A stretch of DNA of 63,444 nt, from IMG/VR virus record IMGVR_UViG_3300044846_000637, positions 1-63,444 of that record; one strand, given 5' to 3'. The position numbers and the translations under genes were made by a program. The notes under the pieces were generated by a model that had not been told where the DNA came from, ran no database searches, and was given only the letters and a program-made list of their open reading frames with translations. Numbering within the stretch: position 1 is the stretch's first letter; the number at the start of each line of letters is the position of its first letter. The DNA is from a virus. Its lineage: Duplodnaviria > Caudoviricetes. Positions 47,356 through 50,630 of the stretch are shown here, in pieces.

Positions 47356-47924
47356 TAAATCACCTCAAACCGGTTGTGTTTTGAAATATTCTCTTTGCCT
47401 CGCAACACCCGCATATTGCTAGGTACGTGCAAACCAGACACCAAATCGCCTTGAAGCGGTATTACGTGGTCAACGTGCCAAGGCTCTTGATTTTCACGGG
47501 TTAGCATTGCAGCAACGGAGTGCAGGCACCTGATTTTTAGCTTGTCAAAATCAGTAAGCCACGCAGGGGTTCGTTGCAACTTTATGGCTCTGCGGTTGGC
47601 GGAATTTGCGGAAGAAACTTCAGGTCGCAACTTTTGGCGATTCAACTGCCGTTTTTTAGCCTGCTCGTGGTTTGCGTAGTAGTACTCAAGTGCTTGGGCG
47701 CGTCTTTTTTCTGCGTTGCGCTGGTACTCCGCTGAATGGTCCCGCTGCATATCCGAAGTTTTACGCTTGTGGTCCCGGCTGCAAAACCTTGCGTTTGACT
47801 TTTTATGGTCAATGTCCACACCACACAATTCGCAAGCTCTGCCTTTGGCTGTCAACCCGGCTCCCTTGGAGGCAGGCAACTTCTCGCCACGACCGATTGC
47901 AAGGGATGGGGTCTTCTTAGCCAT
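47355..47924 (-). mobile_element. HNH homing endonuclease fused to a DUF6321-like N-terminal peptide
   Basis: CELC...FCSRDH Zn finger, RTPAW, HVDHVIPLQG..VSGLHVPSN...EN HNH motif; the first 30 aa parallel the downstream gene. Confidence 0.85.
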
Positions 47925-48666
47925 TGACGACTTTCAGTTTTGGAGTGCAGTGCTGCTCGATCAGCGGCATCAGCACGGCCTCTTTGAAGCTGCGGTGGTA
48001 TTCCTGCGAGCCAACGTGCGGCAGGGTGATCTCTGGGTCAACAAAGACCGTGAACCCATCTCTGCGTGCGCGCTTGCAGAACGTGTAGTCCTCGCCAACA
48101 TACTGCCCATTGGTCAACTCAAAGTCAAACAGGGCGCTTTCGTTGCGGTTGTACACGTCGTTGAAGTACGTCCACTCGGGATGACTTGCAACCATCTTTT
48201 CCAACACATGGCGCTGGATCATCATGAAGCCTGTAGCCACGTTCTCAACCCGCAGCATGCCGTACTGGTCGAACTCAAGCGTGTTGGCTTCGTCGATGTA
48301 AATGTCCAAGAAGAACTTGCGATCCTCTGCACGGCGAGTGTACATCCCGGCTGTGATGTCCTTGCCAGTGCTCAGCGCCAACAGGCGAAGCACGGACTCT
48401 GCGTCCACCACGATGTCGGCATCGATGAACAACATGTCCGTGCAGTCCGACTCCAAGAAGTTGGCGACCAGAATGTTTCTGGCCTTGGTGATCAGAGAGC
48501 AGCCCGACAGATGCGACAGTTGTACTTGAACGCCAAACTGCGAAGCCTTGACCACCAAATCGGCCAAGGCAAACGAAGTCTTGATGTTCAACTTGCCGTC
48601 GTAAGCAGGGATCGCAATCATCAGTTTGCGACCTGCAACATCCATGGGGCGTGTCTCTTCAGCCAT
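47917..48666 (-). CDS. GT-A fold glycosyltransferase-like protein
   Basis: LMIAIPAY, SLITKARN, MLFIDAD (DxD), ATGFMMI, GEDYTFC, LPHVG. Confidence 0.85.
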   Translation of the reverse strand: MAEETRPMDVAGRKLMIAIPAYDGKLNIKTSFALADLVVKASQFGVQVQLSHLSGCSLITKARNILVANFLESDCTDMLFIDADIVVDAESVLRLLALSTGKDITAGMYTRRAEDRKFFLDIYIDEANTLEFDQYGMLRVENVATGFMMIQRHVLEKMVASHPEWTYFNDVYNRNESALFDFELTNGQYVGEDYTFCKRARRDGFTVFVDPEITLPHVGSQEYHRSFKEAVLMPLIEQHCTPKLKVVNG

Positions 48667-49175: not shown

Positions 49176-49577
49176 TTAAGCTGCAACAGCGCCGTTCAGT
49201 GCAACGATGGCCCAGCCAGCAGCGGTGTAAATCAAAGTGGCGGACTCGCCCACCCCAGTGAATGTGATGGTGGTGAAGCCAATCTTAGTTGTGGGTGTCA
49301 AAACAGCAGAGCCGCCATCCACAACGTGAGTGATGATTTTCAACTCGCCAGCCGAGCCGTTAGCCAAGGTCAGGGCTTGTGCAGCGCCTGTGGTGGTCAG
49401 GGCGGTGAATGCGCTGGTGACGTTGACTGCGCCAGCGCCAGACAGGGACTGAGTAGCCAGCACCACGTCAGAGCCGAACGAAGCGTTGACGGTGACTGCG
49501 CCAGTGGTGGCGCTAACGGAAACAGATTGGAAGCCGTTCTCGGAGCGAACTGGGCCGTTGAAGGTGGTATTAGCCAT
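49176..49577 (-). CDS. Head decoration / head fibre-like protein
   Basis: MANTTFNGPVRSENGF N-terminus; beta-rich; directly after the capsid gene. Confidence 0.65.
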   Translation of the reverse strand: MANTTFNGPVRSENGFQSVSVSATTGAVTVNASFGSDVVLATQSLSGAGAVNVTSAFTALTTTGAAQALTLANGSAGELKIITHVVDGGSAVLTPTTKIGFTTITFTGVGESATLIYTAAGWAIVALNGAVAA

Positions 49578-49583
49578 GATGAT

Positions 49584-49660
49584 TCCTTACATGCAAGTGG
49601 GGCGTATCTGTCTGCATGTCGTCGGCCCGGAGCCGTCAGATACACCGGAAAGTCCGGGTT
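49584..49660 (-). ncRNA. Kissing-loop structured RNA abutting the RBS of the 49577 gene
   Basis: P1 CCCGGA/TCCGGG, P2 GTGTATCTG/CAGATACGC and P3 ACATGCA/TGCATGT in crossed order, followed by AAGGA. Confidence 0.65.
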
Positions 49661-49676
49661 TAAACAAATATACACC

Positions 49677-49706
49677 AAAAGAAAAGGGCCCACAAGGGGC
49701 CCTTTC
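49677..49706 (-). terminator. Rho-independent terminator after the major capsid gene
   Basis: AAAGGGCCC-CTTGT-GGGCCCTTT followed by TCTTTT. Confidence 0.85.
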
Positions 49707-49721
49707 ATAAATCCCGAAGGA

Positions 49722-50630
49722 TTAAGCGCCGGGAGAACCGTACACGCCCAGAGGGTCAGACACGCCGAACGAATAACGCTCGCGGGCCTTGTAACGGACG
49801 TTACCGGTGTCGAAATCACCATCCATGGAATTCGCCAAAGGCGAACGGATGAAGTGCTTCAGACCGTTAGGCACATCAGTCAACAAGAACCAAGCGTTGG
49901 TGTCGGTCAAGAAGTTGTTGATCGTGTAACCACCGGGGATGGAACCGTTGTTCTTGATGGCGTTGATATCGTTGTCAGCAGTGCCAACGCGGAGTTCAGT
50001 TTCCAGCAAGCGAGTTGCAACGAATTGCAGTGCAGGTGGAACCACCAGCTTCTTGGGCTTAGCTGCGATCAGCAGGCCGCGTTCGTCTGTCCAAGCAGCG
50101 ATCTGAATGACGGCGTTTTCCAACGAAGTCTCGTTCAGGTCGGCAGGAGTAGCCGGACGGTTGCTGTTGACGCCACCAGAGATCAAGGGGTGTGCAGTCG
50201 AGAACAAGGTAACGCCGTCGCCGTAAGTTACGCCAGCGGTAAAACCAGTATTCAAGATAGCAGCAGCCTTAACCTGCTTGGTGTAAGCCATACCACGGGC
50301 CAGAGCCTTGGTGTAGCGGCTGGACAACGAGTCATACAAGTTGTCTTCCACAGCTTCTTCAGTGATGGAGAAGCCCAAAGCGATGGTTTCGTGGGTGTAA
50401 CGAGCAGTGAAGGCTTCCTGAGCGTTGTCATAAGCGATGGCGGAGCCTTCGTTCTTGACGGGAGCTGCGGAGAAGCCAGACAACTTAACTTCCTCTTCAA
50501 AGCTACGCTCTGAAGTCTCGGTCTCGTAGATTTCCTTGTGCTGTTCGCCGTACTTAGCGTACTCCAAACCGAACAAAGCGTTCAAGCCGGGGAGCAATTC
50601 TTTCAGCAGTTGTGCGCGTGAAATAGCCAT
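49722..50630 (-). CDS. Major capsid protein (HK97 fold, Mu gpT/Bbp17-like)
   Basis: MAISRAQLLKELLPGLNALFGLEY, K.EG.AI.YD, DGVTLFSTAHP, DFDTGNVRYKARERYSFG; strong codon bias; downstream terminator. Confidence 0.9.
   Translation of the reverse strand: MAISRAQLLKELLPGLNALFGLEYAKYGEQHKEIYETETSERSFEEEVKLSGFSAAPVKNEGSAIAYDNAQEAFTARYTHETIALGFSITEEAVEDNLYDSLSSRYTKALARGMAYTKQVKAAAILNTGFTAGVTYGDGVTLFSTAHPLISGGVNSNRPATPADLNETSLENAVIQIAAWTDERGLLIAAKPKKLVVPPALQFVATRLLETELRVGTADNDINAIKNNGSIPGGYTINNFLTDTNAWFLLTDVPNGLKHFIRSPLANSMDGDFDTGNVRYKARERYSFGVSDPLGVYGSPGA

Follow-up and report, generated by a model that had tools for sequence, protein, structure and literature searches.

A pseudoknotted RNA with covarying helices between the capsid gene and a putative virion-surface gene of aquatic phages

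We describe here a structured RNA of about 75 nt that occupies the spacer from the capsid terminator to the following virion gene in a group of aquatic phages. The RNA folds into a compact knot built from the helices P1 (5–6 bp), Pk (3 bp), P2 (about 10 bp) and P3 (6 bp), which is an intricate fold for such a length: all four helices covary and all are mutually knotted. In our preferred interpretation, which rests on comparative sequence analysis and to which we give a probability of about one half, the element would be the complete 5' leader of a small gene for a virion-surface (decoration- or cement-type) protein and would act in cis on its translation.

The window, by which we mean the whole 63,444-nt stretch of DNA that was analysed (IMG/VR record IMGVR_UViG_3300044846_000637), is a 63 kb record that looks like a complete virus. 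Its relatives are the Pelagibacter phages HTVC023P and HTVC027P, the Roseobacter phages CRP-901 and CRP-902, Phage DSL-LC04 and the Planktothrix phage Pag-Yong1. On the minus strand, the capsid stop codon is followed by a terminator-like hairpin, a TATATT box, the motif (which starts 63 nt past the stop codon), a Shine-Dalgarno (SD) sequence and the AUG of a 133-aa open reading frame (Table 1). The capsid protein matched PF25209 (Phage_capsid_4, 9.3e-16) and PF10124 (Mu-like_gpT, 4.8e-9) in Pfam, and phrog_371, a major head protein family, in PHROG. Inside the structural module, two genes past the leader, we also observed a glycosyltransferase-like gene (47917–48666, minus strand; phrog_1574 at 4.8e-37, with weak Pfam glycosyltransferase matches). 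In 24 RNA-library runs, 8–14% of the sampled words were present, and in the four of these runs that were examined, contigs 85–99% alike covered the capsid gene in all four and positions 49507–49659 in three, a coverage by contigs in which DNA carry-over is possible and which has no bearing on transcript ends or cleavage.

Table 1 Coordinates of the knotted RNA and its flanking features in the window.
Feature	Position	Strand	Evidence
Major capsid gene, 302 aa, Mu-gpT-like	49722..50630	minus	Pfam and PHROG profile matches
Intrinsic-terminator-like hairpin and U-run, 3' of the capsid gene	49682..49706	minus	terminator scan: 10 pairs, 6 G-C
-10-like hexamer TATATT, candidate promoter box	49667..49672	minus	consensus T A t a a/t t in the two alignments
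P1 5' strand CCCGGA (P1a)	49653..49658	minus	sequence reading and alignments
P2 5' strand GGUGUAUCUG (P2a), within the P1 loop	49637..49646	minus	10/10 pairs covary
Junction A, first G-A-C corner	49636..49636	minus	AC right after P2a in 98/116 sequences
Pk 5' strand CGG	49633..49635	minus	top covarying column pair; 98.5% and 98.9% paired
P1 3' strand UCCGGG (P1b), also the Pk hairpin loop	49626..49631	minus	alignments
Pk 3' strand CCG, directly 3' of P1b	49623..49625	minus	alignments
A-C-G, second G-A-C corner; C = putative Px partner	49620..49622	minus	C invariant in A2 (66/66); one U-A double change among 87
P3 5' strand ACAUGC (P3a)	49614..49619	minus	6/6 pairs covary
A-G-A, third corner; G = putative Px partner	49611..49613	minus	GA right before P2b in 97/116
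P2 3' strand CAGAUACGCC (P2b), within the P3 loop	49601..49610	minus	alignments, loop-loop test
P3 3' strand GCAUGU (P3b)	49589..49594	minus	alignments
Shine-Dalgarno AAGGA, abuts P3b	49584..49588	minus	SD-like motif -4 to +5 nt from the P3b end in 115/116
Downstream gene, 133 aa: conserved N-terminal segment and beta-rich C-terminal module	49176..49577	minus	homologues, AlphaFold model

In the window, P1 pairs CCCGGA with UCCGGG, P2 pairs GUGUAUCUG with CAGAUACGC (one G-U included), and P3 pairs ACAUGC(A) with (U)GCAUGU, all on the minus strand. A previous sequence-only reading had proposed these three crossing stems with lengths of 6, 9 and 7 bp. All three are present and P1 does have 6 bp, but P2 can be extended by one G-C pair to 10 bp (49646–49637 with 49610–49601) and P3 is conserved over only 6 bp; an extension of P3 by two pairs, which was 59% paired and showed no covariation across relatives, was dropped. 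The stems and the SD abutting P3b also stood as that reading had laid them out, whereas two 6-nt linkers, CUUUCC between P1a and P2a and CCACUU between P2b and P3b, had been left out of its layout, and the AUG, which it placed immediately behind the SD, lies 6 nt further on (49577–49575). In addition, its fold was incomplete, missing at least one further helix, Pk. When two hairpins with complementary loops were scored against chance, the window's 106 nt reached 59, while 1000 dinucleotide-preserving shuffles gave a mean of 37.3 (sd 4.0, maximum 52) and none reached 59, in agreement with the earlier judgement that such an arrangement is unlikely by chance. The nested minimum-free-energy fold of the window region had no excess stability (z = 0.10); it is unremarkable because the structure is pseudoknotted.

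For the comparison among relatives, we collected two sets of loci. Set 1 held 80 IMG/VR loci found with the window capsid protein (85–93% identity; the top 80 among 600 or more matching stretches), about half of which showed the same layout by eye directly past the capsid terminator. A covariance model containing P1 and P3 only (R1) gave 70 matches in the 81 sources around the window capsid, one in each and always on the gene strand. Of the 70, the match in locus L057 was later recognized as Mu-gpT-DE, and two others are truncated at contig ends; the sequence past the capsid is shorter than 600 nt in five of the 11 unmatched sources. With the filters off, the motif occurs as a single copy in the window, and HTVC023P and DSL-LC04 carry one copy each. 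Set 2 comprised 80 further loci found with the HTVC023P capsid (72–93% identity), many of them with 27–35% G+C. R1 had matches in 49 of 83 sources, and the model rebuilt from these matches (R2) gave 59 in 93 sources, namely 55 of the 80 loci together with HTVC023P, HTVC027P, DSL-LC04 and 023Pt_psg01. The E-value was 3.6e-10 in HTVC027P and a borderline 0.099 in phage 023Pt_psg01, where P1, P2, Pk and P3 can all be recognized by eye. Cultured phages that carry the motif include HTVC023P, HTVC027P and DSL-LC04.

The loci also indicated to which gene the motif belongs. In 20 loci of set 1, one or more extra genes put at least 450 nt between the capsid gene and the motif, with the upstream box and the downstream gene kept. 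Since the motif stays with the box and the downstream gene despite these insertions, it belongs to the downstream gene and not to the capsid gene. The inserted open reading frames lie between the capsid terminator and the leader (for example L011:3907–4928, L017, L022 and L003), and this spacer seems to be an insertion hot spot; some of them may start like GIY-YIG homing endonucleases. Six other loci, from HTVC023P-type relatives (L118, L124, L126, L129, L137 and L144), have a different post-capsid gene, beginning MKSDVKPV... or MGYKSDIQ..., behind a short unstructured spacer with no junction leader.

Every helix covaries, also in an alignment that was not fitted to that helix. In alignment A1, made with MAFFT from 47 leaders of set 1, 85.6% of the cells were paired, compared with 68.0% in shuffles (the sequences are related, so that shuffle counts are not probabilities) and 25–44% with slid partners, and 20 of the 21 pairs had changed on both sides. 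In alignment A2, made by R1, the helix P2, which is absent from that model, was 85.8% paired with double changes in 10 of 10 pairs, and the structure as a whole was 90.8% paired against 68.8% in shuffles and 20–44% with slid partners. A mutual-information scan of all column pairs of A2 placed at the top a pair that had not been listed, in the middle of Pk, joining the N of A-C-N-G after P2a with the N of C-N-G-A-C after P1b (TA 31, AT 23, GC 5, CG 5, others 2; n = 66). With its invariant neighbours this pair makes up the 3 bp of Pk, which are 98.5% paired in A2. A third model (R3), containing only P2, Pk and the candidate pair Px described below, aligned 87 of 100 sources, of which 58 came from set 2 and the named phages together and 42 from set 1, out of about 125 motif-bearing sources. 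Over these 87 sequences, the two helices not in R3 were paired in 94.2% of cells for P1 (5/5 pairs covarying) and in 72.7% for P3, which is partly misaligned (6/6), and the two helices in R3 in 92.3% for P2 (10/10) and 98.9% for Pk (2/3). The middle pair of Pk was UA in 51, AU in 18, GC in 11 and CG in 7 of them, and unpaired in none.

A loop–loop helix of at least 7 bp was found between cognate loops in 49 of 49 sequences of set 2 and 59 of 66 of set 1, against 17–22% for non-cognate loops. P1 and P3, as two local hairpins, and P2, as a covarying loop–loop helix, accordingly make up a kissing-loop structure. G-U pairs are frequent (two P2 positions of the R3 alignment, for instance, have GU 15 and UG 15), and they fix the RNA strand because they would be A-C mismatches on the opposite strand. 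The sequence-only reading had looked to homologues for covariation, and P1, P2 and P3 all show it; its claim of a structured RNA past the capsid terminator, ahead of the next structural gene, is likewise confirmed, with the covarying helices on the gene strand.

Pk flanks P1b, so that P1b is the loop of the Pk hairpin; the 3' strand of Pk follows P1b without a linker, and a single nucleotide separates its 5' strand from P1b. By geometry, P1 and Pk could stack as one helix of about 8 bp; in the AT-rich subgroup, P1 has by eye six pairs and Pk two, so that the stack stays at 8 bp. Most exceptions to the adjacency of AC and GA to P2 (Table 1) come down to mismatches near the helix end or to helix detection. 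Three G-A-C corners can be read, one from the end of P2a through A to the start of Pk, one from the end of Pk through A to C, and one from G through A to the start of P2b. Pairing of the invariant C and G in the latter two, here called Px, would give a three-way junction of P2, Pk and the putative Px with three single-A linkers, and P3a would be the loop of Px, as P1b is that of Pk. The candidate pair is CG in 86 and UA in 1 of 87 sequences; besides this U-A double change, found in L101, another was seen by eye in 023Pt_psg01, and no one-sided change was seen. A second Px pair was Watson-Crick in 35 of 66 sequences of A2 and in 23 of 87 of the wider set, the other 64 being non-canonical, mostly G-A. 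A search for a conserved alternative (switching) structure found none. P1a can form a local hairpin of 4 bp or more in 46% of the sequences compared with 17% of the controls, which is an enrichment and not a general feature.

Both ends of the RNA are well placed for a leader. In the -10-like box, 65 of 67 rows of one alignment and 45–46 of 49 rows of the other have the T and A. The box lies mostly 7–9 nt before P1a, and a putative promoter there would start transcription at the first motif bases. A strict sigma-70 two-hexamer scan of the window called no promoter, and the idea of the exact box as a repeated phage promoter was rejected, as 6 matches with at most 2 mismatches were found in the window against 10.9 expected. 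At the other end, the SD starts within 2 nt on either side of the P3b end in 99 of 115 sequences, begins 0–1 nt past P3b in 64 of 115, and overlaps P3b in 27; the distance from SD to AUG is 5–11 nt. This position, from just past the -10-like box to the SD, fits the cis-regulatory leader that the sequence-only reading had proposed; its other suggestion, a packaging RNA, received no support.

The products of the downstream gene are hypervariable and 62–248 aa long, and keep a short N-terminal segment of related kinds (MAxTTFxGPV, MGFATHLGPWLLGT and MAVSTTQSIWRSGGG). The window protein had 4406 homologues at E <= 0.001, the best 120 of which were named only 'hypothetical protein' and had no Pfam family; the protein itself matched no Pfam family, and a sequence search of the PDB returned nothing. 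Residues ~20–133 recur, sometimes repeated, at the C-termini of many longer proteins, of up to ~1500 aa. The AlphaFold model is all-beta (pLDDT 87) and resembles, with modest scores, tailspike N-terminal domains, T4 gp9/gp10-type baseplate domains and a Pseudomonas phage capsid spike. DSL-LC04 has at the same position a gene annotated 'cement protein', and Pag-Yong1 has one annotated 'minor capsid protein'. With these annotations and a surface- or attachment-like fold, the decoration protein assumed earlier is plausible: the product is plausibly a capsid surface protein, and it may be a modular one that combines a conserved anchor with a swappable display domain.

For the search of known RNA families, we used Rfam 15. 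No family matched the window at the gathering score, positions 49300–49900 gave nothing at E <= 10 against all 4227 families except terminator look-alikes, and nine diverse members had no match at E <= 5 at the motif. The likeness to Polynucleobacter-1 that had been suggested in the sequence-only reading was not borne out, since that family (RF01718 in PMC2864571; gathering score 37 bits) had no match at E <= 10 across the whole window. The motif was also considered as a member of Mu-gpT-DE (RF03012 in PMC7657543; gathering score 49 bits) and rejected, as there was no match at E <= 10 in the window. At the same threshold there was none in the L048, L009, L013 and L040 records, HTVC023P or HTVC027P; DSL-LC04 has only a 16-bit match elsewhere in the genome.

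RF03012 was found above its cut-off in five of 39 scanned sources without our motif (L057, L136, L147, L159 and L166), and in Roseobacter phage CRP-902, which served as the positive control, it scored 72.3 bits in the post-capsid spacer (L084:3274–3326), ending at the next AUG. The genes behind these instances start MA(T/N)xTFSGP or MGTTTFSGP and are of the same downstream family. The RF03012 consensus has three GAC triplets at helix ends and a 3' end of GGAG...AUG. Rfam types the family as 'Gene; sRNA', and all six instances seen here end in the SD and AUG of the next gene; Mu-gpT-DE has the look of a 5' leader, not of a free small RNA. Loci L140, L142 and L145 look like weaker Mu-gpT-DE. In Pag-Yong1, the post-capsid spacer (L081:4904–5007) has neither our motif nor RF03012; this GC-rich spacer contains three GAC triplets and two hairpins whose loops may be complementary, and it may be a further variant. 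A sub-threshold RF03012 match before another gene of Pag-Yong1 (24.9 bits), without GAC corners, was set aside.

Four loci carry a mini leader of about 45 nt (L164:3001–3046, L156:2982–3027, L163:2983–3028 and L127:2997–3040), which had no Rfam match at the gathering score. At minimum free energy it folds into a clean three-way junction free of pseudoknots, with a single A as each of the three linkers; helix 1 contains the AUG and helix 3 the SD. L127 differs from the other three loci by compensatory changes. Because RF03012 and the mini leader precede the same gene family and keep the GAC corners, we read our motif as the largest of three architectures on one junction core, which would make it a larger, undescribed relative of the orphan Mu-gpT-DE, outside RF03012 as modelled.

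In the main texts that our literature search covered, no description of the motif was found, and the description of Mu-gpT-DE by Weinberg et al. 2017 stands outside the main text of that paper. Fremin and Kyrpides 2023 (PMC10690425) obtained 8495 candidate structured RNAs from IMG/VR. Since the data source is the same and the motif is abundant, it may be listed there as an unnamed DNAVirus_N model. The passages of its main text covered here mention gp32, and neither this context nor a kissing-loop fold.

As for how such a leader would work, transcription would start at P1a, from the -10-like box, and P2, Pk and the arm closed by the C-G pair Px would meet in the three-way junction. Folding would limit the access of the 30S subunit to the ribosome-binding site, and an effector bound at the junction would set the amount of protein made. 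This effector would most likely be a phage structural protein, in autogenous control, and less likely a small molecule; the structural nature of the regulated gene and the stoichiometric role of its product speak for a structural protein rather than a metabolite. Among the versions of this reading, operation by a protein ranks first, at a fairly low probability of its own; operation by a metabolite or an ion is doubtful, and a fixed attenuator without any effector is quite unlikely. A role in cis is suggested by the single copy per genome and by the tight placement of the SD at the end of P3b, and junction helices bury the SD and/or the AUG of Mu-gpT-DE and of the mini leader. One core with three peripheries, and a ribosome-binding site always in or beside a core-dependent helix, points to control of translation initiation. 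Against this stand that the SD is not uniformly inside a helix, that inhibition need not follow from a helix immediately 5' of an SD, that no conserved switching structure was found, that the strict scan called no promoter, that Px shows just two double changes, and that the six relatives with a different post-capsid gene do without such a leader.

The main rival is a stabiliser of the 5' end, in which the knot buries the end of a late mRNA, blocks 5'-end-dependent decay and raises expression without sensing anything. This is an unlikely but serious alternative. P1a lies 7–9 nt past the -10-like hexamer in most members, which would leave the first transcribed bases paired, the same start geometry is seen in Mu-gpT-DE and the mini variant, and the SDs look strong, 5–11 nt from the AUG. 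However, a simple hairpin would suffice for stabilization, which explains neither the tight coupling to the SD nor the near-invariant unpaired junction bases, conserved while the capsid genes share only 65% DNA identity over a quarter of the query. These bases, clustered at one junction of a complex pseudoknotted fold, could instead form the pocket of a riboswitch of a new class for a metabolite or an ion, with the three-adenosine junction as the binding site, and the SD beside the last helix and the three architectures with one core would suit it as well. We regard such a riboswitch as rather improbable, since the downstream gene is structural and has no metabolic logic, its context gives no clue to a ligand, the hosts are diverse, and no alternative conformer was found. 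A wider conjecture, also unlikely though worth stating, is that the kissing-loop leader, Mu-gpT-DE and the mini leader are one new RNA class whose G-A-C three-way junction binds either a small molecule or the conserved N-terminal arm of the decoration protein.

A compact multi-pseudoknot RNA with a conserved core, borne by phages between two highly expressed genes, invites comparison with a self-cleaving ribozyme or processing signal that would separate the capsid and downstream transcripts. We consider this very unlikely, as no Rfam ribozyme was found at E <= 10 in the region, at the gathering score in the window or at E <= 5 in the nine members; moreover, a junction with 1-nt linkers leaves little room for a catalytic core, and the terminator and the -10-like box already split the units. 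A trans-acting small RNA, for which the type label of RF03012 in Rfam speaks, is highly improbable given that no terminator lies 3' of the motif, which runs directly into SD and AUG, and that the RF03012 consensus itself ends in GGAG...AUG. Least probable is an element acting as DNA, such as an operator, an origin or a packaging site, for which nothing specific speaks and against which stand the compensatory changes with strand-specific G-U pairs, the orientation fixed with the gene and the location between the -10 box and the SD. The preferred reading is a cis-acting leader of the putative virion-surface gene.

With matches in 70 of 81 records sampled around the window capsid and in 55 of 80 sampled around that of HTVC023P, the motif is widespread in a very abundant aquatic phage group. 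The orphan Mu-gpT-DE gains a context as a 5' leader that ends in SD and AUG, with a larger and a smaller sibling, and the shared junction core provides a concrete hypothesis. If the conjecture of one effector-binding class were true, very abundant phages of oceans and lakes could tune the decoration of their capsids. HTVC023P and HTVC027P grow on a cultured host, which makes experiments feasible, and a transcriptome of HTVC027P infection exists (PMC12753301).

Among known systems, Polynucleobacter-1 comes from fresh water and estuaries and is listed as a possible cis-regulator in a table of PMC2864571, as would hold here; its model has 141 positions. Mu-gpT-DE is much closer. It shares with our motif the site after a Mu-gpT-like capsid gene and before the same gene family (MAxTTFSGP...), the -10-like box upstream and the SD and AUG at the 3' end; the motif in the window likewise lies 3' of a Mu-like gpT major head gene. 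It occurs in relatives without our motif. Both have three GAC triplets, which by our reading would be the corners of equivalent three-way junctions with single-A linkers. They differ in size, the Mu-gpT-DE model having 53 positions and our motif about 75 nt. In our motif, a long-range helix of 10 bp, P2, forms one arm of the junction, and the 5' and 3' tails clamp the two hairpin loops through P1 and P3, whereas in Mu-gpT-DE the outer helix has 4 bp and overlaps the SD. The mini leader, seen in four loci, precedes that gene family too and shows the three G-A-C corners as well. Beyond these relatives, autogenous translational operators are known from phage genes such as T4 gene 32, whose leader contains a pseudoknot, and that of the P22 scaffolding protein. 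The fold of our motif is unrelated to theirs; like them, it would be a structured 5' leader that sets the amount of a stoichiometric phage protein.
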